This document shows positions 9,890 to 63,200 of a stretch of 64,000 nucleotides of DNA, piece after piece. The notes under the pieces are model-generated. The model was not told where the DNA came from. It did not search any database and worked only from the letters and a program-made list of their open reading frames with translations. A program made the position numbers and the translations under genes. Each line of letters opens with the position of its first letter. The stretch's first letter is position 1. The DNA is from Candidatus Gastranaerophilales bacterium (GTDB taxonomy: Bacteria; Cyanobacteriota; Vampirovibrionia; Gastranaerophilales; Gastranaerophilaceae): positions 11,223 to 75,222 of the forward strand of contig CALVBS010000003.1 of NCBI GenBank assembly GCA_944325865.1, given 5' to 3'.

Positions 9890-10245
9890 GAGAGTAATGA
9901 CAACAACCAATACAATGACATAATGCGGTTTGTCTTTCAAAGGAATCTGTATGGCTGGTAAGCGGGTAGTTTTCACGTTGTCCACTTTTTTAAGGAGGGT
10001 AACGTGGATTTTGTAGAACAAGTGTGTAAGCATGATACTTTTTCATGACTCCAGTTTGGTCTTGCAATGCACAGAATTGTACTTATGAATCTCAAAACCG
10101 GTCTCAGGAAAAGCCAGCAGTAGGTATTGATTTGATTGTATATGCAAAATCGTTGAAGATGGTTTGCAAATAAAAGATGACTATCCCTGGTAAATTTTTG
10201 TGTTATACTAAAGCTAAAGAAGATAATAGTAAGGAAGTGAATAGT
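9890..10245 (+). other. Long non-coding leader or possible structured RNA upstream of the activase gene (unassigned)
   Basis: About 350 nt without a credible ORF, locally GC-richer than neighbouring spacers. Contains a hairpin TCCAC(9981-9985)/GTGGA(10004-10008) enclosing AAGGAGGG, and a 14-codon mini-ORF 10004..10048. No known RNA family could be matched by eye. Confidence 0.3.
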
Positions 10246-11250
10246 ATGACATTAACAGTATATTTAGGGATAGATGTGGGGTCAGTTACTACAAAGCTGG
10301 CTTTAGTTGATGAAAACGGAAAGTATGTTGACAGCTATATGCTCAGAACTTCTGGTAAACCTGTTTTAGCTGTCCAAAACGGACTAAAAGAGTTGTATAA
10401 GAAAAAATTGACCGATTATAACGTAATGGGTGTTGGAACGACAGGTTCAGGCAGAAATCTCGCAGGTGCGTTAGTTGGTGCTGATATTATTAAAAATGAA
10501 ATTACGGCACATGCTGTCGCTGCAAGTATTAACGTTCCCGGGGTTCAAACAATTCTTGAAATCGGAGGGCAGGACAGTAAAATTATTATTCTCCGTGATG
10601 GTATTGTAACTGATTTTGCGATGAATACGGTTTGTGCGGCGGGTACTGGAAGTTTCCTTGACCAGCAGGCAAACAGGCTTAATGTTCCGATTGAAATTTT
10701 CGGTGAAACTGCTTTAAAATCCACTAATCCCGCTCGTATAGCCGGTCGATGCGGAGTTTTTGCTGAAAGTGATTTGATTCATAAACAGCAGCTTGGATAT
10801 CCGGTGGAAGACCTGCTTTATGGTCTTTGTCAGGCTCTTGTCAGAAATTATTTATCAAATTTAGCCCTCGGTAAAGAATTACTTCCTATAATTACATTCC
10901 AGGGTGGTGTTGCTACAAATTCGGGTATGGTTAAGGCCTTTGAAGAAGCTCTCGGCCAAAAGATTGTAGTACCGGAAAACCACCAGACAATGGGGGCCAT
11001 TGGTGCAGCGTTGCTTGCTATGGAAAATCATCAATATACAGAAGCTCAAACAAAATTTAAAGGCTGGGAAGTCGGTGATATGCACTTCCATTCCATAACT
11101 TGTGAATGTAACGGATGTTCAAATAATTGCGAAGTTATTACAATTCTTGAAGGTGAAACTGAGGTTCCGCATTACGAAAAGATTAAAGATATCAAGGGCA
11201 ATATTATTGCACGTTGGGGCGGAACATGCGGACGTTGGGATATTTCTTAA
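10246..11250 (+). CDS. BadF/BadG/BcrA/BcrD-type ATPase (CoA-substrate-specific enzyme activase, HgdC-like) with Cys-rich C-terminal tail
   Basis: LGIDVGSVTTK, TGSGR, GGQDSK and CAAGTGSFLD actin-fold ATPase motifs typical of dehydratase/reductase activases. C-terminal CECNGCSNNCEV...GGTCGRW. ATG10246 follows AAGGAAG; the ORF-track start 10177 has no SD. Confidence 0.85.
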   Translation: MTLTVYLGIDVGSVTTKLALVDENGKYVDSYMLRTSGKPVLAVQNGLKELYKKKLTDYNVMGVGTTGSGRNLAGALVGADIIKNEITAHAVAASINVPGVQTILEIGGQDSKIIILRDGIVTDFAMNTVCAAGTGSFLDQQANRLNVPIEIFGETALKSTNPARIAGRCGVFAESDLIHKQQLGYPVEDLLYGLCQALVRNYLSNLALGKELLPIITFQGGVATNSGMVKAFEEALGQKIVVPENHQTMGAIGAALLAMENHQYTEAQTKFKGWEVGDMHFHSITCECNGCSNNCEVITILEGETEVPHYEKIKDIKGNIIARWGGTCGRWDIS

Positions 11251-44131: not shown

Positions 44132-45079
44132 ATGAAAAAGAATGATAAAATTTATATTGCCGGACACAGAGGGCTTGTAGGTTCCGCAATAAAAAGAGAA
44201 TTTGAGGAGCAAGGATTTAGCGGAATTCTTGTTAAAACCCACAGGGAGTTGGATTTGACAGATAGTGCGGCTGTTGCGGAATTCTTTGAAAAAGAAAAGC
44301 CGCAATATGTGATTCTCGCAGCGGCAAAGGTTGGAGGTATTCTCGGAAATAATACGTATCCTGTTGAGTTCTTTACTGAAAATATGAAAATTCAGCTTAA
44401 TGTTATAGAAAACTCATTTAAAAATAATGTCAAAAAACTACTGTTTCTCGGCTCAAGCTGTATATACCCTAAAAATGCTTCGCAGCCTATGAAAGAGGAA
44501 TATCTTTTGTCATCAAAATTAGAGAAAACTAATGAGATGTATGCACTGGCCAAAATTTCGGGTTTGAAACTGTGTGCGGCATATAACAGGGAATACGGCA
44601 CCGATTATATTTCTGTTATGCCGTGTAATCTCTATGGATTAAACGATAATTATGATTTGAAGAATGCCCATGTTCTGCCGATGCTTGTGAGAAGATTTCA
44701 TGAGGCAAAAGTTAATAATCTGGCGGAAGTGGTTGTCTGGGGAACAGGCATGCCAAAACGTGAATTTATGTATGCAGGAGATTTGGCGAAAGCTGTTGTG
44801 TTTTTGCTTGAAAACAAATCAGCATCAGAAATCGGCGAATTTATTAATATCGGAACCGGTGAGGAAATTACCATTTTTGAACTCGCAGAACTGATAAAAG
44901 AAGTTATCGGGTTTAAAGGCAAGATTGTCTTTGATACCTCAAAACCCGACGGAACTATGCGAAAATTAATGGATGTGTCAAGAATCAATAATCTTGGCTG
45001 GCATGCTCAAACTTCTTTAAAAGACGGCATAAAACTTGTATATGAAGATTTTTTGAATAATAGAAATATCAGACTGTAG
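44132..45079 (+). CDS. fcl: GDP-L-fucose synthase (GDP-4-keto-6-deoxymannose 3,5-epimerase/4-reductase)
   Basis: 315 aa. IYIAGHRGLVGSA, LGSSCIYPK, YALAK, PCNLYG, VWGTG.P.REF pattern. Confidence 0.92.
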   Translation: MKKNDKIYIAGHRGLVGSAIKREFEEQGFSGILVKTHRELDLTDSAAVAEFFEKEKPQYVILAAAKVGGILGNNTYPVEFFTENMKIQLNVIENSFKNNVKKLLFLGSSCIYPKNASQPMKEEYLLSSKLEKTNEMYALAKISGLKLCAAYNREYGTDYISVMPCNLYGLNDNYDLKNAHVLPMLVRRFHEAKVNNLAEVVVWGTGMPKREFMYAGDLAKAVVFLLENKSASEIGEFINIGTGEEITIFELAELIKEVIGFKGKIVFDTSKPDGTMRKLMDVSRINNLGWHAQTSLKDGIKLVYEDFLNNRNIRL

Positions 45080-45092
45080 TCAGAATAATGAA

Positions 45093-45899
45093 TTATTTTT
45101 CACAGTATGCGACGAGTTTTTCATAATCCGAATATAGACCGACTTCTGTCAATTCTTCAATATAAGGGTTTTTTAGTGAATATAATGTAACATTCTTATA
45201 ATACATTTTTAGAATGAAATAAAGCTCACCTGCATTGAATTCTTCAACATGCCATTTATATGGAGGAGTAATAAGGTTTTGGATATCTTTGTAACGATCT
45301 CTATTCGGTGTGCTTATAACGGCCTTGTCTGCAAGTAGAGAAAATTCATCCAGAAAGGATTTATAGTCTTGAATATGTTCAATAACATCAACGGTTATCG
45401 CTAAATCAAATTTTCCGTATTTATTTAATAATGTAGGGATGTTATCTGTACAATAAATTACATTATCAAGTTTTCTATTTTCTAAAACCCATTGTGTCGA
45501 TTTTGGGTCAATTTCACTTGCAACAAATTTAATATCAGGATGTTTCTGTGCGTTATTCCATTCAAAGGTTCCTACACCAGAACCGATATTGACTACATTT
45601 TTAACATTGTGTAAGAAATATTTTCCTATTGTTTTATTTGCAATAACCATGTCTTCATACTCAAATGGATTGTCCATTTCTATTTGTTTTTGCTTATCTT
45701 CTATGTTACTAATCCAAATTTCAGGATTCTCAACATATTGTATCCCTTCAGCAGGTATAGCCGCACGATTATAAATACTTTTAATTGGTTTAGAAATTTT
45801 CTTTTTAATTCTGAAGCCGGCTATTGTGATAACTTTAAATTTTTTGCCATTAAGGTAGATATTACCTACTGAGAAAATGTTTTGCAATAATTTTTTCAT
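45093..45899 (-). CDS. Class I SAM-dependent methyltransferase with N-terminal IFSxxN module
   Basis: VVNIGSGVGTFE and DLAITVDVIEHI motifs. ATG45899 (MKKLLQNIFSVGN) follows AGGAAA; the track starts at 45926. Confidence 0.8.
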   Translation of the reverse strand: MKKLLQNIFSVGNIYLNGKKFKVITIAGFRIKKKISKPIKSIYNRAAIPAEGIQYVENPEIWISNIEDKQKQIEMDNPFEYEDMVIANKTIGKYFLHNVKNVVNIGSGVGTFEWNNAQKHPDIKFVASEIDPKSTQWVLENRKLDNVIYCTDNIPTLLNKYGKFDLAITVDVIEHIQDYKSFLDEFSLLADKAVISTPNRDRYKDIQNLITPPYKWHVEEFNAGELYFILKMYYKNVTLYSLKNPYIEELTEVGLYSDYEKLVAYCEK

Positions 45900-45961
45900 A
45901 AATTTTTTCCTTTCTAAATTTTTCATACAAAAAGTCAGAGTACTTTAGTACTCTGACTAAG
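45826..45961 (-). repeat. Direct repeat copy 1 (136 nt): terminator hairpin, RBS and first ~25 codons
   Basis: Matches 46946..47080 with one substitution and one 1-nt indel in a T-run, by hand alignment. Confidence 0.9.
45929..45958 (-). terminator. Terminator-like hairpin between the ATP-grasp and methyltransferase genes
   Basis: AGTCAGAGTACT / AGTACTCTGACT stem followed by T5 on the minus strand. Confidence 0.6.
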
Positions 45962-45969
45962 CAACCTTT

Positions 45970-47019
45970 TTATAATTTTGTTTGTAAAGAATTTTCTTTC
46001 TGAATTCTATCAGAGAGACAGTCTTGCCCTCCCTCCCCATTCTGAGATGCAGGCAGGGTAAGCATTTCACCGAGTTTGTAATCCCATTCTTCAGGTTCAA
46101 ATTTTTCCAATCCTGCCCAATGGAAAAATGTTAATTCAGAAAATTTAAAACTATCTTTAGTTTTATAAAAATCACATCTCACAAATGGGAAACTTTTACA
46201 CACATTTTGAGCAAATTGTAACATTTTATCAAAATATACAGGCTTTTCAATTAATTTATCAAAATTCGGATAATGATCAACTATCGGCAGTTTTTCCCAA
46301 TTAAGACTGTAAAAGTTTGCACTTGTATTTGGTGTTTTGTCATCAAATACTATCCAAAACATTTCAGGCTTGCCGTTAAAACAGAAAAATTCCAATTTAT
46401 ATTCAAAATCCAACAACTCTTCACAAACAATCATTGGTTTGATGTCTCTATACCCTGTTTCGAATGAATAATAATAATGATTAGATTCTTTTTTAAGCCA
46501 AGATTCCATCATATTTTTTACTTTTTCAAATTCTAAAGACTTCTTATCTTTAACGATTAATTGTAAACCTGAACCCCAGTTTGATTTTAAAACAAATTGC
46601 TCAGGCAATGAAGAAAAATCAATTTCTTCTGGTCTATGATAAATCCCATATTGTTTTACAAGATGGACCGGAGCCGCCCCTGTCTTTTCAAGAAAATAAT
46701 CTCTAGCTCTAACTTTGTCAGCACATACAGACATTAGGCTGTTTTCATAATTTAATTTTAACCAATTTAACTTTTCGTTAAAAGTTTTTGGGTTATCAAG
46801 GTTTGGTTTATAGCCAATAGCTTGTTCAAATTGATGTTCAATAATATATTTTTTATCTTTAAGTGAAAGATTCGGGTCGTATTTTCTGGCGAGAAGTTTT
46901 TCAAGTTTAGATTTCTTGTGGATTTTTATTTTCAGTCCAGCAACAGTGATAACTTTAAATTTTTTGCCATTACGGTAGATATTACCTACTGAGAAAATGT
47001 TTTGCAATAATTTTTTCAT
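45970..47019 (-). CDS. TupA-like ATP-grasp amidoligase-family protein with N-terminal IFSxxN module
   Basis: KPNLDNPKTFNEKLNWLKL...FVLKSNWGSG...FSELTFFHWAG pattern typical of the TupA-like ATP-grasp family. ATG47019 preferred over the track's TTG47049. Confidence 0.8.
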   Translation of the reverse strand: MKKLLQNIFSVGNIYRNGKKFKVITVAGLKIKIHKKSKLEKLLARKYDPNLSLKDKKYIIEHQFEQAIGYKPNLDNPKTFNEKLNWLKLNYENSLMSVCADKVRARDYFLEKTGAAPVHLVKQYGIYHRPEEIDFSSLPEQFVLKSNWGSGLQLIVKDKKSLEFEKVKNMMESWLKKESNHYYYSFETGYRDIKPMIVCEELLDFEYKLEFFCFNGKPEMFWIVFDDKTPNTSANFYSLNWEKLPIVDHYPNFDKLIEKPVYFDKMLQFAQNVCKSFPFVRCDFYKTKDSFKFSELTFFHWAGLEKFEPEEWDYKLGEMLTLPASQNGEGGQDCLSDRIQKENSLQTKL

Positions 47020-47080
47020 AAATTTTTCCTTTCTAAATTTTTCATACAAAAAGTCAGAGTACTTTAGTACTCTGACTAAG
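46946..47080 (-). repeat. Direct repeat copy 2 (135 nt)
   Basis: See copy 1. The spacing between copies is 1120 bp. Confidence 0.9.
47048..47077 (-). terminator. Terminator-like hairpin (identical to 45929..45958)
   Basis: Same 12-bp stem plus T-run, 36 nt after the stop of 47113..48987. Confidence 0.6.
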
Positions 47081-47112
47081 CCGCTTTTCTATAACGTTGT
47101 TTGTTAAACTTA

Positions 47113-48987
47113 TTAGTTCTGAATGCTGTCAGGGACAGAACCTTGCCCCCCCCCCCCATTCTGAGATGCAGGCAGGGTAAGCATTTCCCCGAGTTTATAA
47201 TCCCACTCTACCGGCTCAAAAGCTTCAAGTCCATTAAAATGATAAAATGTTATTTCACCAAAATAAATTTTATTACCAATTAAAAATAAATCAATTCTGG
47301 CATGAAGAAAATCTTTTGATAGCTTTTTTGCTACATTAAGCATTTCTTGAAAACATTCCGGTTTTGGTATTTTTTTGTTACTAACATCATAATGTTGTTT
47401 AAATGGAAGTAAATTAAAATCTAAATCATAAAAATTGAATTTTAAGTCTTTATGCCTGTCAATTCCCACAAACAAAAAGCTCGGATTTCCATTGTTGCAA
47501 AATATTTTATAATCCAATAAGTTCCCGTCTATTTGCTCAATATATTTTTCAGCAATAATTTTAGGCTGAATATTCTTATAACACCATTCAAACCCGAAAT
47601 AGTAATGATTAGAATGCGGCTTCAACCATTCTTTTAATTTAGCTTTAGCTTCTTTAATATCAAGTTTTGATTTATCTTTAACAATAATATTCTGCCCGCT
47701 GCCCCAGTTAACTTTTAGTACAAATTGCTCCGGAAGTTTGTCAAAATCAATTTCGTCAGGGGAATCCCAGACGCCTAAAAGCGGGATTAAGTATTCTTCC
47801 CCGATTTTTTCTTTGACATAATCTCTGACAAGATATTTATCAGCACATTTGGTCAAAAGCGGGTCTTCGTTATAAAGTTTGAGCCATTGAAGTTTTTCGT
47901 TGAAACTTTTCGGATTATCAATATTTGGTTTATACCCGACAGCCTGCTCAAACTGGTGCTCAATAATATATTTTTTATCATCGAGTGAAAGATTCGGATC
48001 GTATTTTCTTGCTAAAAGTTTTTCAAGTTTAGATTTCTTGTGGATTTTGATTTTCACTCCAGCAAGCGTAATAACTTTGTATTTTTTGAATTTGTGAGTT
48101 TGATTTTTTATTGAAAATAGGTTTTGCACTAATTCTTTTCTGGCGTTTTTATTCAGCTCTTTATATAATTCCTTGAAATCATTATAAAAAGGTGTGAGTT
48201 TCGTGTATTTTTTATAGTCATCAAAATGTTTAACATTTTTGTTATTCCAAGGTTTATATGGACTTGCCCAGTGTATAATTACAGGATTATTTTTATCCTT
48301 ATGGAATTTTGATAATGCCTTTTTGTTGTCCCATACAGCAGGTCTAAAATTGAATTTTTGATTAAGATATAATATCTTATCATACAGAGTAATATTAAAA
48401 ATACACTGGTCGTAATATTTATATATGCCTCTATATTTCTTTTCTTTTTCAAATAACAAATCTTCAATATGATTTTGTCGCCATAATTTTAGATTCGCAA
48501 GCATTACTCCGGTATTACAATATTTATAATTATCCGGAATGTCTAAGCTTCTTTGATAATAGCTAGCACCTTCTTCTGTAGAAGGACAGCATGCCATATA
48601 ATAATTATCAATATTTGTGTTCCAAAGTTCGGATAAACTGTCCACAATAATTAAATCTGCATCCATAAAAATTATTTTATCAATATCTTTTAATATAGAA
48701 GATATCATCATTCGATAATTTGTAACCATAGGAATATCAGCTCTGGTATCATTTCTTTGTTCATGATGGAGTTTTTTGTTTTGTGCATAATATTTAATTT
48801 CAAAATCTTTAATGTGCTTTAATTGAGCTAATTTATTTTTACTTTCTTGAGTAATACTTCCGTCATTAATAATATGGAAAGTAAAAGTTTCGTCCGCTTT
48901 ACTATTTTTTAATATTGATGCTATTACAACAGAACAGTATTTTACATATCCATCATCAATTACAAATCCGATATCTATATTTGTCAT
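47113..48987 (-). CDS. Bifunctional GT8 glycosyltransferase / TupA-like ATP-grasp protein joined by an IFSxKN linker module
   Basis: 624 aa. The N-terminal half is GT8-like (IGFVIDDGYV, FMDADLIIV DxD, NTGVMLANL). The C-terminal half is paralogous to 45970..47019. Confidence 0.85.
   Translation of the reverse strand: MTNIDIGFVIDDGYVKYCSVVIASILKNSKADETFTFHIINDGSITQESKNKLAQLKHIKDFEIKYYAQNKKLHHEQRNDTRADIPMVTNYRMMISSILKDIDKIIFMDADLIIVDSLSELWNTNIDNYYMACCPSTEEGASYYQRSLDIPDNYKYCNTGVMLANLKLWRQNHIEDLLFEKEKKYRGIYKYYDQCIFNITLYDKILYLNQKFNFRPAVWDNKKALSKFHKDKNNPVIIHWASPYKPWNNKNVKHFDDYKKYTKLTPFYNDFKELYKELNKNARKELVQNLFSIKNQTHKFKKYKVITLAGVKIKIHKKSKLEKLLARKYDPNLSLDDKKYIIEHQFEQAVGYKPNIDNPKSFNEKLQWLKLYNEDPLLTKCADKYLVRDYVKEKIGEEYLIPLLGVWDSPDEIDFDKLPEQFVLKVNWGSGQNIIVKDKSKLDIKEAKAKLKEWLKPHSNHYYFGFEWCYKNIQPKIIAEKYIEQIDGNLLDYKIFCNNGNPSFLFVGIDRHKDLKFNFYDLDFNLLPFKQHYDVSNKKIPKPECFQEMLNVAKKLSKDFLHARIDLFLIGNKIYFGEITFYHFNGLEAFEPVEWDYKLGEMLTLPASQNGGGGQGSVPDSIQN
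47146..47157 (-). repeat. Homopolymeric C12 (G12 on the coding strand) near the 3' end of the GT8-ATP-grasp gene
   Basis: Counted directly. It encodes GGGG, 10 codons before the stop. Confidence 0.95.
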
Positions 48988-49021
48988 TAGACACTTTCCT
49001 CCATAATCTGTGTTTATTGAA

Positions 49022-50122
49022 TTATTCGTTATGTTCAGCTATTAACATTGTTTCATGCAAAAATTTAGTATTATGACATTTTATAATTTTGAATTTATAT
49101 CCTAAATTCCAGCTTTCAATCATTGGCTTTATTTCAAACAGGTCATGCATATTATGGTAGATTGAGATTAACAGTACAGGTCTTTGCGTACAGATTGTCT
49201 CTTTTGCCCCTTCCAGAAGTTGAGGTTCAAAGCCTTCTACATCAGTTTTTATTAATCCAATATTTAAATTATTATTTTTTACATATTCATCTAAAGTGAT
49301 AATGTTTATTTCTTCTTTTTGCATTCCTTCTCTATTACTTTCTAAGATTGTTGAGCCGCTGTCGTGAACATTTATATGAACTGTTTCTGTTTTATTTCCA
49401 ACGGCATATTTTACAGGAATTACATTTTGTAAATTATTCATTTGGATAGTTTTTAAAAGCATATTATAATTTTCATTTACAGGTTCAAAAGCGTGAATTT
49501 TAACTCCATTTTGAGTAATTTCTGAAAATATACAGGCAGAATCTCCTATAAAAGCATCGGCATCAATTATGTCGTTATTTTTTATAAGTTCTATACTTTT
49601 TTCTGATAATTTGTCTATTCCATGTTTAAAATAAAAGGCTTCACCTCCACATTTTAAAGGTAGTAGATATTTACCATGTTTCCAAATATTAGGTGCAAGC
49701 ATAATAATCTTTGAATCAAAGTTATCATATTGTTTTAGAATTTCTTCCTTTTCTTTTTCTGTAAATAAATCAATAGTTTTTTTATGCAAATTATTCTTTA
49801 TAAGATTAAATCTGTAGATAATCCGGTCTATAACTTCAATACTTTCAGCATCCAAATTTTTTATTAATGCAAAATATTTTTCTTTTAAATCTTTAGGTAA
49901 TTCTTCTTTAGAAAAATCTAGCCAATATTTTTCAAAATGATGTTTATATAATGTTAGATTTTCTTTTTCTATAGAATTATCAAATAAGATATTCTTATTA
50001 TTTAGATTCATTATTTTATGTTTAACCTTTAAGCCGCAAAGTCTAAGGACTTTGAATTTTTTATTATTAACAGTTTCATTTTTAACTGAAAAAATGCTGT
50101 CAATGAATTGTTTTATTTGCAT
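49022..50122 (-). CDS. FkbM-family methyltransferase with N-terminal IFSxKN module
   Basis: 366 aa. IIDADAFIGDSACIFSE, HAFEPV.ENY, LIKTDVEGFE, ISIYH blocks. Confidence 0.8.
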   Translation of the reverse strand: MQIKQFIDSIFSVKNETVNNKKFKVLRLCGLKVKHKIMNLNNKNILFDNSIEKENLTLYKHHFEKYWLDFSKEELPKDLKEKYFALIKNLDAESIEVIDRIIYRFNLIKNNLHKKTIDLFTEKEKEEILKQYDNFDSKIIMLAPNIWKHGKYLLPLKCGGEAFYFKHGIDKLSEKSIELIKNNDIIDADAFIGDSACIFSEITQNGVKIHAFEPVNENYNMLLKTIQMNNLQNVIPVKYAVGNKTETVHINVHDSGSTILESNREGMQKEEINIITLDEYVKNNNLNIGLIKTDVEGFEPQLLEGAKETICTQRPVLLISIYHNMHDLFEIKPMIESWNLGYKFKIIKCHNTKFLHETMLIAEHNE

Positions 50123-50166: not shown

Positions 50167-51126
50167 TTATTTCCGTAGTTTTTCTTGCTCTCTCCATTCT
50201 ATAAATTTTCTAATTCCTTCTTCAAAAGTTGTTTGCGGGTTATAGTTTAACAGGAGTCTGGCTTTGGTTATGTCTGCGACTGTTTTATCAACATCCCCAG
50301 GCTGCATAGGCAGGCTTTCGATTTTTGCCTTTTTACCAAGAACTTTTTCAATAGTCGCTATCATTTCATTTAAAGTTATAGGCGAACCGCCTCCAAGATT
50401 GATTATCTCATATGGCGTTTTGTCATAGTTTATTGCTGACATAATTCCGTTTACTATATCGTCAATGTATGTATAGTCACGCATTGTGGTTCCGTCACCA
50501 TAGACCGGAATCGGTTTATCCTGTTCTATTAATTCTATAAATTTTCTTATTGCTAGATCCGGTCTTTGCCGCGGTCCGTAAACCGTAAAAAATCTTAAAC
50601 ACAACGCTTGCATATCATAAAGTTTTGAATATGTATATAAGAATTGTTCACACGCTGATTTCGTTGCTGCATATGGAGAAATTGGCTCCGTAACTTTTAA
50701 ATCTTCAGTGAACTTTTCTGCTTTGCAGTTTCCGTAAACAGAACTGGAAGACGCAAACACAATCTTTTTAACATTATGTTCCTTCATTAATTCAAGAATA
50801 TTTATTGTTCCGGCAATATTTGATTGAACAAATAATTTAGGATTACTGATAGAGGCTCTGACGCCTGCACTGGCCGCAATATGAACAACTACATCAATGG
50901 AATATTCATTAAAAGCTTGTTCCGCAATATGTTTATCACAAATATCACCAATAAAAAGTTTAAAGTTAGGGTTATTAATATATGGATTAATATTTTTCCA
51001 CTTTAACTCAGGTGGATAGTAATCATTCATATTATCGATAAGAATTGTTTTATGATTTTGAGCGAGTAATTTATCTGTTAACGACGAACCGATAAACCCC
51101 GCCCCGCCTGTGATTAGTATTTGCAT
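50167..51126 (-). CDS. NAD-dependent sugar-nucleotide epimerase (UDP-glucuronate 4-epimerase-like SDR)
   Basis: 319 aa. [29 protein letters not shown]. Confidence 0.85.
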   Translation of the reverse strand: MQILITGGAGFIGSSLTDKLLAQNHKTILIDNMNDYYPPELKWKNINPYINNPNFKLFIGDICDKHIAEQAFNEYSIDVVVHIAASAGVRASISNPKLFVQSNIAGTINILELMKEHNVKKIVFASSSSVYGNCKAEKFTEDLKVTEPISPYAATKSACEQFLYTYSKLYDMQALCLRFFTVYGPRQRPDLAIRKFIELIEQDKPIPVYGDGTTMRDYTYIDDIVNGIMSAINYDKTPYEIINLGGGSPITLNEMIATIEKVLGKKAKIESLPMQPGDVDKTVADITKARLLLNYNPQTTFEEGIRKFIEWREQEKLRK

Positions 51127-53231
51127 TATCTTTTCCCTTTATGAACAAATGTACAAAAATTTTTATAATCAACTCTGGTATTAGGAAAATATATGACATC
51201 TTCTGTTAAAATATTATGTTTCCATAATAAGTAAGGAAGTGAAAGTTGATCTCTCTTTGTATAATTTTCAACCATATACCACCAGTCTTCCATAAGTGAA
51301 ATAATTTCTGGTTTGTTATGCTGACGGTATATAATATTATTTTCAGGCATTCCGTAATTTTTAGGAAAACCGTTGTCTTGTAAAAGTTTTAAATGAGCCT
51401 GCATAATTTCAGGTTTATCAACTTTTTCCCATAGAACCCATTCAAATTCTTTATATAGACATATTGTACTTGCATGCTCAGCAAGCATAATGCTTTTGTG
51501 TTTTTTATAATTATCAATAATTTTAAATAATTTATCTGTTAAAATATTAATATTTGCATCAATATAGATACTTTCATCATATTCGGAAAGTATCAAGTGC
51601 GGATTAATTTTATGCCAGCGGTTATTTCTAGTGTCATCATGTTCAGTGAACTGTAGCGGTCTGATTTTCCAAATACCGAATTGTTTTTGATTAATAAGGT
51701 TTTGATTGTCTGTAAAACATACATAGTCCCAGTCAAAATTGATAAAAGTATAACCTTTGATTTCTTCCAAATCATCATAATTGCCAGTAATACATGTATA
51801 TACTACTTTATTGGACGGTTTATTCTTTCTAATATTATTATATTCAATAATATCATCTTCACAAAATTCATATTTATTGCATAAAAAAGCATCCTTGTAT
51901 CTATAGCGTCCTTCGTTTAAAAAATAAAGTAAAGGATTTTCTTTAATTTGTGGATATCTTTCTATGTAGTTGTTTCCATCGAAAATAAATGAAGGATTAA
52001 TATTTTCTTTCCAACCCTTAATAAGGTAATGTTGAAGTACTCCTAATTTATCAAGATTTAAACTTGGACATTGCCTGTTATAATATTTGTAATCAATTAA
52101 TCCAGAATCTCTAAGTTGATTAATTTCATAGTTATTTAGTAATGATTTATTATCCACTCCTCGTTTTGTCATATTTTTATTTCTTCTGATTTTAAGTTTC
52201 AAACCTAATATAGATACAACTTTATGAGTATGATTATTTTTAATAGAAAATAGTTTTTCAAGAAAACTGTTTTTCAAGAAAACTGTTTTACCTAAGGAGT
52301 CAAAATATTTTACATCCAGTTTTTTCACTGCATTAATAAACTTTGATTTGTTTAATATCCCTAAGTCTAATGTATTTAGGTCATAAGAAAGTTTTTCTAG
52401 TACCTGTTTTTGGTTTTTACCATTTTGAAAATTATAATCTTCAAAGAATAAGTATTTTAAGTTTGAATGAAACATATCATAATGTTTTTGTGTAAGATTA
52501 TTTTTGTTATAGTATTTTATTAATGATGGAATTAATACAATATTATCAAAAATTTTTGTACTAGTTTTCAGCAACCTACTTCCCATAATTGAATCTGATC
52601 GTTGAACATAGTTGTATAAGTATTGAGGAATATAATATCCATATTTAGCCCAAACTGCATATTGTAACCAAAAAGCAAAGTCATCATGTCCAGAGTTTGT
52701 TAGAAATTTAATTTCATGAGCATCAATGATAGATTTTTTATATAATTTGCTCCAAGTTGTAACAACAGTTTTGCTAATAACATAATCTGTAACAATGATT
52801 TTACCAATAAAATTAATATTATAATATTGAGTAATTTTTGATTTAATTGCATCATTATTATACTCAAAAATAGGATTAGCACTCCAACATACATAGTCAA
52901 CATTGTTATTAAGCATTGCTTCATATGCAAGTTTAAATGTATTTGTGTCTATCCAGTCGTCACCATCAACAAATGTTAGATATTCTGCAGATACTTCATT
53001 TAAGCCCGCATTCCATGCAGAAGATAATCCTCCGTTTTCTTTATTTATGATTTTTATTCGTTTATCTTTTTGGGCATATTCTTCTAAAATAGATAAAGAA
53101 TTATCGGTTGAGCCATCATTGATACAAATAATTTCAATATCACTAAATGTTTGGTTAATAACACTATCAAGACATTTTACTAAATATTTTTCAATGTTAT
53201 ACACAGGAATAATTACTGAAATTTTAGCCAC
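51126..53231 (-). CDS. Bifunctional GT2 glycosyltransferase / DUF616-like putative glycosyltransferase joined by an IFSxKN linker module
   Basis: 701 aa. N-terminal ISVIIPVYN...INDGSTDNS...DGDD. C-terminal VVYTCITGNYDDL...CFTDN...SIYIDANI...RDQLSLPYLLWK, a DUF616-type pattern as I recall it. Confidence 0.8.
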   Translation of the reverse strand: MAKISVIIPVYNIEKYLVKCLDSVINQTFSDIEIICINDGSTDNSLSILEEYAQKDKRIKIINKENGGLSSAWNAGLNEVSAEYLTFVDGDDWIDTNTFKLAYEAMLNNNVDYVCWSANPIFEYNNDAIKSKITQYYNINFIGKIIVTDYVISKTVVTTWSKLYKKSIIDAHEIKFLTNSGHDDFAFWLQYAVWAKYGYYIPQYLYNYVQRSDSIMGSRLLKTSTKIFDNIVLIPSLIKYYNKNNLTQKHYDMFHSNLKYLFFEDYNFQNGKNQKQVLEKLSYDLNTLDLGILNKSKFINAVKKLDVKYFDSLGKTVFLKNSFLEKLFSIKNNHTHKVVSILGLKLKIRRNKNMTKRGVDNKSLLNNYEINQLRDSGLIDYKYYNRQCPSLNLDKLGVLQHYLIKGWKENINPSFIFDGNNYIERYPQIKENPLLYFLNEGRYRYKDAFLCNKYEFCEDDIIEYNNIRKNKPSNKVVYTCITGNYDDLEEIKGYTFINFDWDYVCFTDNQNLINQKQFGIWKIRPLQFTEHDDTRNNRWHKINPHLILSEYDESIYIDANINILTDKLFKIIDNYKKHKSIMLAEHASTICLYKEFEWVLWEKVDKPEIMQAHLKLLQDNGFPKNYGMPENNIIYRQHNKPEIISLMEDWWYMVENYTKRDQLSLPYLLWKHNILTEDVIYFPNTRVDYKNFCTFVHKGKR
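52254..52285 (-). repeat. Exact 16-nt tandem duplication (2 copies) within coding sequence
   Basis: TTTTTCAAGAAAACTG repeated at 52254-52269 and 52270-52285 (plus strand). Confidence 0.9.
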
Positions 53232-54303
53232 AATAATTCTCCGTATTTTTTTTACGTATTTTTATTTTTGTACCCAATATACAAATAACTTTATGATTAT
53301 TATCATTTTTTAGTGAGAATATTTTTTCAATGAATGAATATTTAGGTTTTATTTTTAAAAGTTTCAGAGCTAGTTTCGTATCACCATTTTTAATAGCTTT
53401 AATTAATGTTATATCGTCAAAGAATGTAATATTTAATAGTTGTTTTTGTAGTATTGAAAACATCTGGATTTTGTTAGAATTGTCTAAAAAAGACCCCCAA
53501 TATTTTATTATATTGATATATATTTCTTTATATTTTTTTGTAATTTCTTTGGGGATAATAGGCGTTTTTAACATAAACAATGTTACATCATTATATGCAT
53601 ATAAAAAGTCAAAATCATTTGTTTTATCTTTTTTATATAAATTTTCCATCAACGAGTTTGGATTAGATATATTATAATTGTATAATATTTCATTAAGACC
53701 ATAATATGAAGAACTTATTGCTAGATATTTTAAAATAAAACTGGCATCTTCATGTTTATAACTAATAGGAAAACGAATCTGGAATTTTTCAATAAATGAC
53801 TTTTTAAATATTTTATTCCATAAAATAACATTGATCATATTAATCGTCTTATTATTAATTTTATTATATCCAATAAGTTTTAAATTATGATAATTTAGCT
53901 CTTTCGATTGTCTTATTGTTGTAATCTGTTTATCTTTTAAATACTTACAATCACACATAACAAGATCAACGTTATACGAAAGTATTGCATTGATCATTTT
54001 TTGACACATATCTGGTTCATAATAATCATCAGAATCACAGAACATTAAGAATTGACCAGTGGCATTATCTAATCCATTATTTCTGGCAGTGGCAGCTCCT
54101 GAATTCGTTTGATTTATAACAATAATTCTCTTATCTTTGGTAGCATATTCATTTAATATATTTAGAGAATTATCAGTTGAACCATCATTAATGCAAAGTA
54201 TTTCAATATTTTTATATGTTTGATTAATTAAACTATCTAAACATCTTACTAAATATTTTTCAGTATTATATATTGGAACTATTATTGATATAAGATTATC
54301 CAT
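53224..54303 (-). CDS. GT2 glycosyltransferase with C-terminal IFSxKN module
   Basis: 359 aa. ISIIVPIYN, INDGSTDNS, CDSDD. The tail is IEKIFSLKNDNNHKVICILGTKIKIRKK. Confidence 0.85.
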   Translation of the reverse strand: MDNLISIIVPIYNTEKYLVRCLDSLINQTYKNIEILCINDGSTDNSLNILNEYATKDKRIIVINQTNSGAATARNNGLDNATGQFLMFCDSDDYYEPDMCQKMINAILSYNVDLVMCDCKYLKDKQITTIRQSKELNYHNLKLIGYNKINNKTINMINVILWNKIFKKSFIEKFQIRFPISYKHEDASFILKYLAISSSYYGLNEILYNYNISNPNSLMENLYKKDKTNDFDFLYAYNDVTLFMLKTPIIPKEITKKYKEIYINIIKYWGSFLDNSNKIQMFSILQKQLLNITFFDDITLIKAIKNGDTKLALKLLKIKPKYSFIEKIFSLKNDNNHKVICILGTKIKIRKKNTENYCG

Positions 54304-54317
54304 TATTTCTCCCGTTA

Positions 54318-55313
54318 TTATTTTGATATTACAAATTGTTTACCACATAGAGTTAGTATTTTTAATTTTTCTCCAAACAATTCACTGTTTTTTAGTGAAA
54401 ATATTTTTTCAAAATTATTTTTACAGCCTATTTTGTAAAGCTTATATTTATTAAATATTTCTTTTGAAAAAGTTTTTTTTATGTCATTTTCAAATTTTTT
54501 TTTGTGTTTTTCTGGAACATAAACAAATTGTCTGCCTAAAGTAAGTGCAGCATAGTCAATGAAATACTTGTTTAATTCCGGTAAGAGATTTTGTTCTTGT
54601 AAAAAATCTTTTACCAAGTTTACAATGTTTATGACTTTGAGTGTTTCTAATGTTTCTTTTTTACAGGCAGAACCTTTACAAATTCTATAGTTATATAATG
54701 GTTTATTGATAAATATAATTTTATTTGCAAAAATTCGGCTTTTTATTGTAAATATATGATCTTGTGCCAATTTGGTATCAGCAAATTTTATATTGTTATT
54801 TTTAATAAAGGCACTTTCATATAATTTGTTCCATACTGATAAATTTGTACTTTTAAAAATATAATCCGGGTTTTCTTTCCAGTTAAATATAGTATCTTCT
54901 TGAAGTAGAATGGCATTAGGTCTTATTTTTGATTCTTTAGAATATTCATAATATTGGTTATATATGGCTTCAACGATATCAGAATCATAGGATTTAGCCT
55001 TAGAATACATTTCCTCATACATATTCAGTTCAACCCAATCATCCGGATCTACAAAACCTATATATTCACCGCTTGACAGTTCTATTCCTCTGTTACGGGC
55101 AACGCCCTGACCCTGGTTTTCCTGACTTATTACTTTTATCCGCTCATCTTTTGACGCATATTCTTCTAATATTGATAACGAACCATCGGTTGAACCATCA
55201 TTGATACAGATTATTTCTATATCGGCTAAAGTTTGATTAATAAGACTATCAAGACATTGTCTTAAATACTTTTCGACATTATATACCGGAATAATAACCG
55301 ATACCTTTGGCAT
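54318..55313 (-). CDS. GT2 glycosyltransferase with C-terminal IFSxKN module
   Basis: 331 aa. VSVIIPVYNVEKYL, INDGSTDGS, VDPDD. Confidence 0.9.
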   Translation of the reverse strand: MPKVSVIIPVYNVEKYLRQCLDSLINQTLADIEIICINDGSTDGSLSILEEYASKDERIKVISQENQGQGVARNRGIELSSGEYIGFVDPDDWVELNMYEEMYSKAKSYDSDIVEAIYNQYYEYSKESKIRPNAILLQEDTIFNWKENPDYIFKSTNLSVWNKLYESAFIKNNNIKFADTKLAQDHIFTIKSRIFANKIIFINKPLYNYRICKGSACKKETLETLKVINIVNLVKDFLQEQNLLPELNKYFIDYAALTLGRQFVYVPEKHKKKFENDIKKTFSKEIFNKYKLYKIGCKNNFEKIFSLKNSELFGEKLKILTLCGKQFVISK

Positions 55314-55647: not shown

Positions 55648-56649
55648 ATGGCTAAAGTATCGGTTATAGTTCCGGTATATAATGTAGAAAAATATTTAAG
55701 ACAATGTCTTGATAGTCTTGTTAATCAAACATTAACTGATATAGAAATAATCTGTATAAATGACGGCTCAACAGATGGTTCATTAGCAATATTAGAAGAC
55801 TATGCATCAAAAGATAAAAGAATTCGACTAATTAGTCAGGAAAATCAAGGTCAGGGAGTTGCCCGTAACAGAGGAATAGAGTTGTCAACAGGCGAATATC
55901 TTGGCTTCGTGGATCCGGATGACTGGATAGAGTTGAATATGTATGAGGAAATGTATTCTAAGGCTAAGCTGTCGGATGCTATGATTGTAGAGGCTATGTA
56001 TAGCGAGTTTTTCGAAAGCTCTGGAAAAACCAAGATTCGCAAAAGTCCTGTAACTCTTCCGGAAAATCAGGTTTTTACGTGGAAAATTCATAAGGATTAC
56101 TTATTTAAAAGTTCAATTCTTGCAGTTTGGAATAAAATTTATAAAAAAACTTTTGTTAATCAGCACAAAATTAGGTTTGCAGAGGCAAAACTGGCTGAAG
56201 ATCATATTTTCACTTTGAAAAGCAAAGTCCTTGCAGAGAAAATCAATTTTATCAATAAACCTTATTATAATTATCGGGTACGTCGGGATTCCGCGGTTAA
56301 CAGTATCTCACCTGAAACATTGAGGGTTATTGATATATTGAAAGATGTAAATGCTTTCTTTAACGAACAAGGTGTGCGTAACAAATATAATCGAAAAGAG
56401 TTCGATTCTTATTTTGAATTTACACTTGCAAGGCAATATGCTTCTGTGCCTGAGGGGTGCAAAAGTCTTTATGAACAAAAATGCAGAGCTTTTCTAACAG
56501 ATAAACAGTATAAAGAATATCAAAAATTTAAATTTGGGAAATTCAAACCTCTGGAACGTATTTTCTCATTGAAAAATGAAACTTGTTTTGGAGTAAGATA
56601 TAAGGTTTTAGTGTTATTGGGCTGTAAAATAAAATTTAAGCCTGTATAA
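55648..56649 (+). CDS. GT2 glycosyltransferase with C-terminal IFSxKN module (mirror paralog of 54318..55313)
   Basis: MAKVSVIVPVYNVEKYL... aligns from residue 1 with the divergent paralog. ATG55648 follows GGAG. The track's 55546 extension is unsupported. Confidence 0.9.
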   Translation: MAKVSVIVPVYNVEKYLRQCLDSLVNQTLTDIEIICINDGSTDGSLAILEDYASKDKRIRLISQENQGQGVARNRGIELSTGEYLGFVDPDDWIELNMYEEMYSKAKLSDAMIVEAMYSEFFESSGKTKIRKSPVTLPENQVFTWKIHKDYLFKSSILAVWNKIYKKTFVNQHKIRFAEAKLAEDHIFTLKSKVLAEKINFINKPYYNYRVRRDSAVNSISPETLRVIDILKDVNAFFNEQGVRNKYNRKEFDSYFEFTLARQYASVPEGCKSLYEQKCRAFLTDKQYKEYQKFKFGKFKPLERIFSLKNETCFGVRYKVLVLLGCKIKFKPV

Positions 56650-56667: not shown

Positions 56668-57810
56668 GTGGATAAAGTTATATCAATTATAGTGCCGGTT
56701 TATAATGCCGAAAATTATTTATATAGATGTCTCAGCAGTTTGCGTGCACAAACATTTGGTTTTATTGAGATTATATGCGTAAACGACGGCTCTACCGATC
56801 ACAGTGCAGAAATTTTAGAACGATTTGCTTTGTTAGATTCCAGAATAAAGGTTATATCTCAGGTAAATTCCGGTCCGGCCTCTGCAAGAAATAAAGGCCT
56901 TGAAGCCGCTACCGGTAAATACGTTATGTTTTGTGATGCAGATGATTCATTTGAACCCGAAATGTGTGAAAAAATGTACAATGCGATGCTTATACATAAT
57001 GTAGATTTAGTTATGTGTGATTGTAATATTAATACAACAGTTTCGGCTAATTTCCGTAAGGAAAAGGATATTTTATATCATAAACTTAAACTCGCAGGAT
57101 ACTGTTTTATAGACGCAAAGATATATAATTTGATAAACGTAGTTTTATGGAATAAAATCTTAAAAATATCTTTAATTAAAAAATATAATATCAAGTTTCC
57201 TGATGGTTATGAACATGATGATGCGTGTTTTATCCTGAAATATCTTGCAGTTAGTACATTGTACTACGGGCTTGATGAACCGTTGTATAATTATAATATT
57301 TGCAATCCTGAGTCACTTATGGCTAAGGTGTATAAAAGAAATAATTACGGTAAGAAACTTGATTTCCTTTATGCTTATTATGACGTGATGTTGTTTGTCC
57401 TACATAATCCTGTCAGAAAAGAAATTTTAGAGGGGTTTAAGCATCTGTATGTTAATCAACTGGGTTATTTCGGGCAATTCCTAACAAGTCGGGAACAGTT
57501 CGCAATGCTTGCTGTTTTGCATGGCCAGCTAAAAGATATTGATTTTTTCGAAAAAAATAAATTTATAGATACTGTAAGAGAGGGAAATCTAAAAAAAGCA
57601 CAGGTTTATTTTAATCGTAAAACAAAGTTGACATTTCTCCAACAGATATTTTCATTAACCAATAAATCAGACAAAATAAAACTTTTAACGATTTTAGGTG
57701 TCAGTATTCCACTGCCTCGTAACGCTAAAAGACTTGAGTTGTCAAAAATGAACAGGATAAGCCTTAAGCAATGTAAAACAGGTAATTTAAATCAGGTTAT
57801 AAAATGTTGA
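56668..57810 (+). CDS. GT2 glycosyltransferase with near-C-terminal IFSxxN module (mirror paralog of 53224..54303)
   Basis: 380 aa, GTG start. ISIIVPVYN, VNDGSTDHS, CDADD. Confidence 0.85.
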   Translation: MDKVISIIVPVYNAENYLYRCLSSLRAQTFGFIEIICVNDGSTDHSAEILERFALLDSRIKVISQVNSGPASARNKGLEAATGKYVMFCDADDSFEPEMCEKMYNAMLIHNVDLVMCDCNINTTVSANFRKEKDILYHKLKLAGYCFIDAKIYNLINVVLWNKILKISLIKKYNIKFPDGYEHDDACFILKYLAVSTLYYGLDEPLYNYNICNPESLMAKVYKRNNYGKKLDFLYAYYDVMLFVLHNPVRKEILEGFKHLYVNQLGYFGQFLTSREQFAMLAVLHGQLKDIDFFEKNKFIDTVREGNLKKAQVYFNRKTKLTFLQQIFSLTNKSDKIKLLTILGVSIPLPRNAKRLELSKMNRISLKQCKTGNLNQVIKC

Positions 57811-60930: not shown

Positions 60931-61875
60931 ATGAAGAGAATTTTAGTAACAGGCGGTGCAGGCTTTATAGGAAGCCATTTATGTGAAAGACTGTTAAATG
61001 AAGGTAATGACGTAATCTGTCTGGACAATTTTTTTACAGGTTCAAAAGATAATATAAGACATCTATTGTCAAATGATCATTTCGAACTGGTCCGTCATGA
61101 CATAACAAAAGAATATTTTGCCGAAGTTGATCAGATATATAATATGGCATGCCCTGCAAGTCCTCCTCATTATCAATATAACGCAATTAAAACAATTAAA
61201 ACCTCAATTTTGGGTGTAACCCATATGCTTGGTCTTGCAAAACGCTGTAAGGCAACAATTTTGCAGGCTTCTACAAGTGAAGTTTATGGAGATCCGAAGG
61301 TACATCCGCAGCGTGAAGATTACTGGGGTAATGTTAATCCTATAGGTGTCAGAAGCTGCTATGATGAAGGTAAGCGTTGTGCTGAAACACTAATGATGGA
61401 TTATCACAGGCAAAACGGTGTAGATACTCGAATTATTCGTATTTTTAATACGTATGGTCCGAATATGGATCCGAATGATGGCAGGGTTGTTTCTAACTTT
61501 ATTGTTCAGGCTCTGCAGGGGCATGATATTACAATTTACGGTGACGGTTCACAAACCCGTTCTTTCTGTTATGTATCGGATCTTGTTGACGGTATCGTAA
61601 AAATGATGAATAATCCTCAAAAATTTATCGGTCCTGTAAATTTGGGTAATCCATCAGAAAGAACAATTCTTGATTTTGCAAAACTTATTATTGAAATGAC
61701 AAATTCAAATTCCAAAATAGTTTACAGACCTCTGCCTGGTGATGACCCTACTCAGAGAAAACCTGATATTTCTCTTGCGAAAAAAGAACTCGGCTGGGAG
61801 CCTAAAGTTGATATCAGAGAAGGTTTGCAAAAAACTATTGAGTATTTTGACAGAAAAATAAAGGAGAATAAATAA
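60931..61875 (+). CDS. uxs: UDP-glucuronate decarboxylase (UDP-xylose synthase)
   Basis: 314 aa. [52 protein letters not shown]. Confidence 0.93.
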
Positions 61876-63200
61876 TGAAAGTATGCGTAGTAGGAACAGG
61901 TTATGTAGGTCTTGTAGTCGGTACTTGCCTTGCCGAAATGGGTAACAATGTTATCTGTGTCGATAACGATTTGAAAAAGTTGGCAAAGCTTGAAGAAGGT
62001 ATTGTGCCGATTTATGAACCTGGTTTGGAAGAACTTATTAAGGTTAATGTTGCAGAAGGCCGTTTGAAATTTTCTTCAGACCTTGCTGATTCAGTCCAAA
62101 AATCACTGGTTTGCTTTATTGCGGTAGGTACTCCTCAAGGGGAGGACGGTTCTGCAGATTTACAATATGTTTGTCAGGTTGCCGAAGGTATAGGTAAAGC
62201 TTTAAACGGCTACAAAGTTATTGTTGATAAGTCAACAGTACCTGTAGGAACTGCTGATAAGGTTACTTCTATTATCAAGTCAGTTTCAAGTGAAGACTTT
62301 GATGTTGTTTCAAACCCAGAATTTTTAAAACAGGGAGCTGCAGTTGATGACTTTTTAAAACCGGACAGAGTTGTAATCGGTTCTAACTCCCAAAAAGCAA
62401 CTGAAATTATGCAGGAATTATACGCTCCGTTTTTGAGAACAGGCAATCCGGTTATCATAATGGATGTTAAATCTGCAGAAATGACTAAATATGCGGCAAA
62501 TTCATTTCTTGCCGTAAAAATTTCTTACGCAAATGAAATTGCAAATATTTGTGAAAAAGTGGGTGCTGATGCCGAAATGGTAAGAATTGGTATGTGTTCC
62601 GATAAACGTATCGGTTCACAATTCTTGTTCCCTGGTTTAGGATATGGCGGAAGCTGTTTCCCTAAAGATGTAAAAGCTCTTTTGAAAACCGCTAAAGATA
62701 ATGAATGTGATTACCAGCTTTTGCAGGCTGCAGATGATGTTAATAAAAGACAAAGACAAATATTTATTAACAAAATTCTCAAAAGATTCGGCAATAATCT
62801 TTCAGGTAAAACCTTTGCAATCTGGGGTCTTGCTTTTAAACCTAAGACTAACGATATGAGAGAGGCTCCTGCTATTACAATTATCAATGCTTTGCTGGAA
62901 AGAGGTGCTAAAGTTCAGGCATATGATCCGAAAGCTTTTGACAGTGCAAAATTTATTTTCGGTGACAAAATCGAATATGCAAAATCTTCATACGAAGCAC
63001 TTCAAAATGCAGATGCACTGCTTTTGTTAACAGAATGGAACGAATTCAGAAGACCTGATTTTGATAAGATTAAATCATTACTGAAAAATCCTGTTATATT
63101 CGACGGAAGAAATCAGTATAATGCAAAACGTCTTATTGAAAGAGGGTTTGAATACACACAAATCGGAAAGCAAACCGATAAGTCACTTTTGAATGTTTAA
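61875..63200 (+). CDS. ugd: UDP-glucose 6-dehydrogenase
   Basis: 441 aa. VVGTGYVGLV, NPEFL.QG, GGSCFPKD, WGLAFKP.TNDMREAP. Confidence 0.95.
   Translation: MKVCVVGTGYVGLVVGTCLAEMGNNVICVDNDLKKLAKLEEGIVPIYEPGLEELIKVNVAEGRLKFSSDLADSVQKSLVCFIAVGTPQGEDGSADLQYVCQVAEGIGKALNGYKVIVDKSTVPVGTADKVTSIIKSVSSEDFDVVSNPEFLKQGAAVDDFLKPDRVVIGSNSQKATEIMQELYAPFLRTGNPVIIMDVKSAEMTKYAANSFLAVKISYANEIANICEKVGADAEMVRIGMCSDKRIGSQFLFPGLGYGGSCFPKDVKALLKTAKDNECDYQLLQAADDVNKRQRQIFINKILKRFGNNLSGKTFAIWGLAFKPKTNDMREAPAITIINALLERGAKVQAYDPKAFDSAKFIFGDKIEYAKSSYEALQNADALLLLTEWNEFRRPDFDKIKSLLKNPVIFDGRNQYNAKRLIERGFEYTQIGKQTDKSLLNV

Follow-up and report, generated by a model that had tools for sequence, protein, structure and literature searches.

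Introduction

The variable region of Campylobacter jejuni capsule loci, described in 2005 work summarized in PMC3417588 as diversifying by horizontal transfer, duplication, deletion, and fusion, is the closest known system to the locus reported here. Our subject is a surface-polysaccharide locus in a stretch of 64,000 nucleotides, hereafter the window, from a Candidatus Gastranaerophilales bacterium (assembly GCA_944325865.1, contig CALVBS010000003.1), and in particular a 135-bp direct repeat that brackets one gene for a predicted amidoligase. We consider it probable that this hypervariable glycan locus contains a homologous-recombination hot spot in which the repeated leader, a short protein motif, and a gene tail act as exchange junctions. 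C. jejuni capsule loci resemble ours in having conserved flanks around a set of glycosyltransferase and tailoring genes that varies among strains by duplication, deletion, and fusion, and in the presence of multidomain enzymes and G-tracts. Our locus differs from them in its host, an uncultured close relative of Candidatus Scatousia from the gut, in having its exchange points marked by a 135-bp element (terminator, ribosome-binding site [RBS], and leader) and a motif of ~30 amino acids (aa), and in that no G-tract length variation was seen here.

A parallel at the level of a single enzyme is C. jejuni HS:2 Cj1438, in which a glycosyltransferase carries a fused PF14305 domain and which is encoded in a polysaccharide locus that also makes UDP-glucuronate. 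With serinol phosphate or ethanolamine phosphate, its C-terminal TupA-like domain amidates glucuronate at the C6 carboxylate (PMC11800379), and a second paper sums up the family of TupA-like ATP-grasp proteins as predicted to add amino acid decorations to surface polysaccharides. The predicted fusion enzymes of our locus depart from Cj1438 in two ways: the N-terminal domain is GT8 or DUF4422 rather than GT2, and the linker is a short junction motif rather than a domain of ~125 aa.

Two general systems also invite comparison. When tandem direct repeats undergo RecA-dependent unequal crossover and gene conversion, tandem genes change in copy number. Our locus shares with such exchange its head-to-tail units, copy-number differences between relatives, mosaic identity, and variants common within a genome, but the homology is short (135 bp, of which 58 nt is the longest perfect stretch) and spans the boundary between nonhomologous catalytic domains. 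The alleles seen here have differences in the adjoining sequence too, so that exchange between strains appears to be involved as well. Integron gene cassettes, the other system, are open reading frames (ORFs) followed by attC, and their boundaries do not extend into the next coding sequence. Here, too, a promoterless ORF is followed by a palindrome, and the arrays run in one orientation; unlike integron cassettes, however, the locus has no integrase, its hairpin is short and of the terminator type, and its duplicated segment takes in the following gene's RBS and 25 of its codons. The locus is, in short, a well-resolved new example, from an uncultured gut lineage, of a known kind of mosaic locus; the recombination principle itself is not new.

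A repeated leader bounds a tandem unit

Coordinates are those of the window throughout, L001 to L028 denote the contigs compared, and AG1, AG-B, and MT are working labels. The genes around the repeat are all on the minus strand. AG-B (45970-47019, minus; 349 aa, Pfam PF14305), a standalone TupA-like ATP-grasp gene and predicted amidoligase, is the single ORF bracketed by leader copy A (45826-45961, 136 nt, minus) and leader copy B (46946-47080, 135 nt, minus). Copy A comprises a hairpin, a spacer, an RBS, the ATG at 45899, and the first 25 codons of MT (45093-45899, minus; 268 aa), a class I S-adenosylmethionine methyltransferase; copy B is the same element in front of AG-B, whose ATG lies at 47019. 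The copies share orientation and reading phase and match at 134 of 136 aligned positions (P for at least 134 matches, 6e-14, assuming the 76% identity typical of neighboring paralogous sequence). A sequence-only reading of this DNA had described near-perfect 135-bp repeats around exactly one ATP-grasp gene, differing by one substitution and one T-run indel and each containing the hairpin, RBS, ATG, and about 25 codons in the same phase, and that description holds for both copies. The substitution falls in codon 16 (CTT versus CGT, near 45853/46973), and the indel, on the coding strand, is one A in the A-run of the RBS-to-ATG interval.

The hairpins occupy 45933-45958 in copy A and 47052-47077 in copy B (both minus). 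The underlying sequence, AGTCAGAGTACT-AA-AGTACTCTGACT, is a 26-nt perfect palindrome, of which there is no further copy elsewhere in the 64-kb window. Scoring gives each an 11-bp stem with 5 GC pairs and a 4-nt loop, followed by the T-run TTTTTGT; each folds at approximately -19 kcal/mol (z = -3.6 and -3.9 against shuffled controls), and 44900-49200 (4.3 kb) contains no other terminator-like site. With these sequence features of an intrinsic (Rho-independent) terminator, both hairpins are putative terminators. A search of the intergenic leader for known RNA families gave only chance-level Rfam matches. In each copy, AAGGA sits ~9 nt ahead of the ATG, and the 25 leader codons encode MKKLLQNIFSVGNIY[L/R]NGKKFKVIT.

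The 135-bp pair is not an isolated repeat, as it forms the ends of a tandem unit of ~1,120 bp. The array (45803-48164, minus) contains ~2.1 units of 1,119 to 1,122 bp, each reading junction motif, ATP-grasp, tail, hairpin, and RBS, and the units stand head to tail in one orientation with their junctions within homologous sequence, as in a tandem duplication. The partner of AG-B in this array is AG1, the first ATP-grasp module, which forms the C-terminal half of a 624-aa fusion (47113-48987, minus) and is joined through the junction motif to a GT8 glycosyltransferase. Both modules match PF14305 far above the 25-bit cutoff, AG-B with 142.5 bits over profile positions 1 to 240 of 241 and the C-terminal half of the fusion with 208.2 bits.

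The identity between the units is mosaic: 84 to 93% in the N-terminal segment, 51 to 67% in the core, 96% in the tail, and 98 to 100% in the leader, with 55% identity between the AG1 and AG-B proteins overall. A second similarity, linking 45970-47019 to the linker and ATP-grasp half of 47113-48987, which the sequence-only reading took for another in-frame recombination path toward domain-swapped fusions, is likewise real as a similarity. Its N-terminal part lies at 46831-46966 (minus), which matches 47953-48088 at 84 to 93% DNA identity, and its C-terminal part is the AG-B tail at 46000-46146 (EWDYKLGEMLTLPASQNG..., minus), which is near-identical to the AG1 tail at ~47130-47265 (96% over 45 nt). 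Where AG-B and AG1 have the same residue, the codon is also the same in 80% of cases at the ends and in 52% in the core (Fisher p = 3e-4). This excess of codon identity indicates that the ends share more recent ancestry than the cores do. The repeat itself terminates at the shared ...KVIT codons.

Haplotypes with one, two, and duplicated units

The population comparison was made on assembled consensus contigs from gut metagenomes, found mostly through exact-protein look-ups; scans with MT yielded one locus from JGI metagenomes (L009) and one from GTDB genomes (L008). The latter, a metagenome-assembled genome of Candidatus Scatousia excrementipullorum, was the only named genome matched. Candidatus Scatousia, which NCBI taxonomy lists only under "Bacteria incertae sedis," we take to belong to the Gastranaerophilales, the order that appears in the name of one homolog's source (Candidatus Gastranaerophilales bacterium). 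As their housekeeping flanks are 99 to 100% identical, the window and most of the compared contigs represent one species, and between these flanks the glycosyltransferase and tailoring genes vary from contig to contig.

Two layouts are common. At least 27 contigs have the two-copy form, and at least 27 have one hairpin and leader, no AG-B, and an intact MT. The sequence-only reading had suggested looking in related genomes for loci that lack the ATP-grasp gene and keep a single repeat copy, and the latter contigs are such loci. The two-unit layout was found in 23 of 23 contigs with exact AG-B and in 23 of 23 with exact MT, sets that overlap each other and also the 22 contigs with the exact fusion protein whose sequence continues beyond it, all 22 of which have two copies. 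Within the two-unit form, L002 and L006 have the GT8 domain swapped for a different GT8 (GT8b), and in L007 AG1 is standalone and preceded by a DUF4422-methyltransferase fusion. Among one-unit loci, L008 and L009 have GT8-AG1, one hairpin and leader, an intact MT, and no AG-B; L014 has the same layout with a DUF4422-AG chimera as the left partner. All 24 contigs with MT allele P0339 are one-unit, and their left partner is GT8a-AG1, a GT8 fusion of 641 to 652 aa, or a standalone ATP-grasp gene of 342 to 343 aa. One-unit contigs, some of them up to 266 kb long, carry their own single-nucleotide polymorphisms (SNPs) and a hairpin-loop variant.

An amplified state had been predicted as the reverse of gene loss, and it exists. 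L010 to L013, each from a different sample, have a standalone AG-B after a DUF4422-AG-B fusion. The duplicate cores are 100% identical over 868 to 893 nt, and both equal the AG-B core of the window, which indicates a very recent duplication or conversion; the second copy bears an AG1-type tail and 3' untranslated region (3' UTR). In L010 the duplicated cores lie at 8865-9732 and 9972-10839, with a like arrangement in L011 to L013. The AG-B core is 100% identical across L001 to L007 and L010 to L013, and the nearest AG-B homologs elsewhere are these same fusions and standalone genes.

Domain-swapped fusions, the third predicted outcome, likewise occur in several kinds, with breakpoints at the junction motif. 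The AG1 and AG-B modules are found as GT8a-AG1, GT8b-AG1, DUF4422-AG-B, a DUF4422-AG chimera, and standalone AG1, and each kind of left partner (GT8a, GT8b, DUF4422, or none) occurs both with and without a second ATP-grasp unit. In L002, L007, L008, and L014, homology to the window is lost at ~48050-48150, at the junction motif in the GT8-AG1 linker (LVQNLFSIKNQTHKFKKYKVITLAGVKIKIHKK; 48034-48132, minus); for L002 it starts at ~48130-48140, and for L007 where the motif ends.

A methyltransferase allele tract travels with the polymorphism

In the window and 24 fetched loci, one hairpin goes with the absence of AG-B and an MT 5' half of type "b," and two hairpins go with AG-B and type "a" (45459-45858, minus), from which the one-unit allele differs at 7 to 16 positions per 100 nt. 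The sole exception, L013, has two units and a mosaic MT 5' half closer to allele b. The window and L009 show mostly 0 and at most 6 mismatches per 100 nt over ~2 kb upstream of the hairpin, and equally few downstream beyond ~45459 except in a short patch of the GDP-fucose synthase gene (fcl). Their differences come down to the 1,120-bp AG-B unit, the divergent tract at 45858-45459, and the fcl patch. The same tract sets apart L014, L008, and L019 to L028; all 13 one-unit loci that were checked at the sequence level, out of the at least 27 contigs, are divergent in the first ~400 bp of MT.

Because every checked one-unit locus carries this divergent 5' half, these loci are allele replacements and not fresh pop-outs. 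It had been argued that recombination between the repeats would remove AG-B and leave an intact methyltransferase gene. The resulting state exists (L008, L009, L014, and all 24 P0339 contigs), but a simple pop-out is ruled out as the origin of the one-unit haplotypes observed, given that they carry MT allele b. Judged from their sequences, the two alleles are leader, AG-B, 3' UTR, hairpin, leader, and MT-a 5' half on the one hand and leader and MT-b 5' half on the other. The linkage of the MT allele to the presence or absence of AG-B could reflect co-adaptation or simple hitch-hiking.

The leaders themselves carry signs of exchange. In L007 the copy-B hairpin loop is ATATTC, with the stem kept, and the same loop occurs in L019 to L028; copy B of L007, loop included, equals the leader of one-unit haplotypes, and its copy A equals copy A of the window. 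Such a pattern would be expected had an unequal crossover at the ...KVIT codons placed two alleles of one leader in tandem. In the window lineage, copy B has since grown closer to copy A, with the same loop and TTG, but has retained CGT. Among the leaders, TTG and TTA are each found with both CTT and CGT, and both copies in L010 to L013 have a TTC variant. The AG1 tail of two-unit strains equals the AG-B tail at positions that are different in the AG1 tail of L008 and L009, and a G12 tract found in AG1 is also present in the AG-B of L007 and interrupted in that of the window. The codon combinations, the common TTC variant, the tail matches, and the G12 distribution together point to continuing conversion. 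The same leader differs more between strains than do the two copies within one genome.

Proposed recombination at conserved junctions and its alternatives

We read the 135-bp repeat as a leader that would follow an ATP-grasp module and supply a terminator hairpin, spacer, RBS, ATG, and 25 codons, the latter presumably encoding the first strands of the ~30-aa junction motif, and that stands ahead of two unrelated genes, AG-B and MT. Unequal homologous recombination probably set two allelic MT leaders in tandem, with the downstream crossover in the short conserved motif-coding sequence ending in ...KVIT. The leader, the motif with the N-terminal segment, and the C-terminal tail would then serve as conserved junctions for RecA-type recombination and gene conversion, both between tandem paralogs and between strains. 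The outcomes would be strains with one or two amidoligase modules, differing cores in each slot, and partners that are fused or unfused; in-frame junctions mean that each product is an intact gene. The one-unit and two-unit alleles are probably swapped by one crossover inside MT and another in or before the leader. We infer that these events belong to an evolutionary timescale rather than to a clonal switch.

Several observations weigh against this proposal or limit its reach. L013, a two-unit locus with a mosaic MT closer to allele b, leaves room for a loss route of AG-B. Left partners could have been reassorted by ordinary recombination anywhere in the ~1-kb AG1 body with the leader uninvolved. 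The identical cores in L010 to L013 exceed short-read length, so that their copy order depends on the assembler, although four assemblies agree.

The sequence-only reading went further and saw a built-in cassette system, in which the 135-bp repeats would keep clonal subpopulations with zero, one, or two AG-B genes through programmed, high-frequency switching in the style of phase variation. We think this unlikely. A switch would accommodate the direct, in-frame repeats, the existence in the species of one-, two-, and duplicated-unit states, the signs of conversion in the leader, and the end of one contig (L018) inside the repeat. Yet none of the 13 one-unit loci checked is a fresh deletion from an allele-a two-unit genome, the layout is kept in all 22 exact-fusion contigs that extend past the fusion, the copies' two differences are fixed among strains, perfect homology extends over no more than 58 nt, and the poly-G length is invariant. 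Nor did the locus show a dedicated recombinase, invertible repeats, or silent donor cassettes, the marks of a phase-variable system: both units are full ORFs with an RBS, and there are no recombinase, transposase, or integrase genes within ~10 kb of the repeat. The claim of a programmed or frequent switch is thus unsupported, and the presence or absence of AG-B is an ordinary recombination-driven gain/loss polymorphism, not a proven switch. It is similarly doubtful that the motif and the terminator-RBS-leader form a dedicated in-frame "joint" by which the repeat drives real-time amidoligase switching within a population; if true, this would amount to recombination-based antigenic variation from expressed modules instead of silent cassettes.

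Could purifying selection on a common terminator, RBS, and N-terminal motif account for the identity of the leaders, with no recombination and no role in gain or loss? A conserved hairpin stem with a varying loop, and conservation of the motif at the protein level in nine locus proteins, would fit, but we rate this as quite improbable because the other seven copies of the motif use different nucleotides (the third aligned copy, in the fusion linker, has ~60% identity), the spacer and synonymous positions are identical too, leaders diverge more between strains than within one genome, and the repeat is where the boundaries of presence and absence fall. A mobile or site-specific cassette, either an integron ORF-attC unit or one like a miniature inverted-repeat transposable element (MITE), with the hairpin as recombination site, is very improbable. 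ORF-then-hairpin units in one orientation that are present or absent between strains do recall such a cassette; however, the 26-nt perfect palindrome has a T-run and only two copies in 64 kb, the duplicated segment takes in 75 nt of the coding sequence that follows, integrase and transposase genes are absent within ~10 kb, and target-site duplications and terminal inverted repeats were not found. An integron or MITE identity was accordingly rejected, with two hairpins only, no recombinase nearby, and repeat boundaries in coding sequence. Finally, repeats near read length and the capacity of metagenome assemblies to mis-join raise the question of a duplicated or collapsed contig segment, which the sequence-only reading had itself named as a concern. 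We give this next to no credence, as the copies have distinguishing differences and different flanks, the same structure recurs in more than 20 independent assemblies, and the one-unit form comes from at least 27 contigs with their own SNPs and loop variant. The same copies with the same two differences are present in the independent metagenome assemblies L002, L003, L005, and L006. Contig L018 (7.8 kb, with the exact fusion gene) stops at the A-run inside copy B (L018 6875-6965); this is the first position where the copies differ and a typical assembly-graph break at a genuine repeat.

The junction motif

Among the junctions through which we propose that recombination acts, the motif is the most promising lead beyond the repeat finding itself. 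It spans ~30 aa, approximately [LF]xxxIFS[VIL]KN...K.K[VIL]..[IL].G.K[IL]K, and the leader codons encode its first part. A motif profile matches nine proteins of the glycan locus and no others in the window, at the C termini of glycosyltransferases, at the N termini of the FkbM methyltransferase, AG-B, and MT, and in the linkers of two minus-strand fusions. Besides the linker copy at 48034-48132, the minus-strand copies are at 45798-45890, 46912-47010, 50015-50107, 52179-52265, 53248-53334, and 54321-54416, and the plus-strand copies are at 56551-56634 and 57634-57708. The motif (IFSxKN...KxKVxTxxGxKIK) was seen at every module boundary of the glycan locus.

Searches of Pfam, NCBIfam, and PDB returned no match for the motif. 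In the AlphaFold2 model of MT (predicted local distance difference test [pLDDT] score, 92), it forms a short helix and a three-stranded beta-meander, with a pLDDT of 62 to 87 in that part. A library-wide profile search matched at least 675 cluster representatives, often with 2 to 4 copies per protein, and in ten long matches the motif was combined with GT1, GT2, GT8, DUF4422, GT29, RgpF, glycerophosphotransferase, or phosphoribosyltransferase domains. This unannotated motif of multidomain glycan enzymes may be a membrane or docking tag.

Predicted function and implications

TupA-like ATP-grasp domains are amidoligases of cell-surface polymers, and AG1 and AG-B, by family membership, would play this role in the locus. 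The dehydrogenase gene of the locus (61875-63200) fits with uronic acids as substrates of such amidoligases, since a UDP-glucose dehydrogenase can supply UDP-glucuronate. By analogy to Cj1438, the functional effect of module exchange would be changed amide decorations on the uronic acid residues of the surface glycan; strains with AG1 alone, AG1 plus AG-B, or AG-B twice likely differ in the set or dose of these decorations.

The locus offers a nucleotide-level view of surface-glycan variation in an uncultured bacterium of the human and animal gut that is related to Candidatus Scatousia. It has two common alleles, with and without the extra amidoligase, and many fusion variants, and the short in-frame junctions are the same in all of them. 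Strain typing in metagenomes can use one versus two hairpins and MT allele a versus b as markers, and the AG-B polymorphism is a natural experiment on the amide decoration of uronic acid glycans.

Other features of the locus

The poly-G tract mentioned above, a run of 12 (47146-47157, minus; a C-run on the plus strand), encodes GGGG and lies 33 nt before the AG1 stop. Its length did not vary across the AG1 tails examined, so it does not behave as a phase-variation tract. A slip to G11 or G13 would alter only the last ~11 residues, with products of 636 and 619 aa, and a read-through fusion by poly-G slippage was therefore ruled out. In L009, a C-to-T change just after the tract makes a stop codon, giving a 614-aa product. 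The AG1 3' UTR carries the sequence TAATAAGTTTAACAAACAACGTTATAGAAAAGCGG.

Upstream of the GT8-AG1 fusion on the minus strand lie genes for an FkbM methyltransferase (49022-50122), an SDR epimerase/dehydratase (50167-51126), a GT2 glycosyltransferase fused to a TOD1/MUCI70-like domain (51126-53231), and two further GT2 glycosyltransferases (53224-54303 and 54318-55313). On the other side of the array, fcl is next in order and convergent with MT. Farther along, on the plus strand, are two GT2 genes, a GT8 gene, a GT8-FkbM fusion, and another SDR gene, and the UDP-glucose/GDP-mannose dehydrogenase gene at 61875-63200 is at the edge of the glycan locus.

In a different organism (L015 5564-10544), an AG-B-like gene with 87% identity occurs with a DUF4422-methyltransferase fusion and a 624-aa protein for which PF14305 is the one Pfam family on record; the motif is present in the latter protein and in the DUF4422-methyltransferase fusion. 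A 958-aa GT2-GT8-TOD1 triple fusion in L010 (1301-4177) is split in L011 (1293-4177) into genes of 621 and 346 aa, which extends the fusion/fission polymorphism to the upstream part of the locus.

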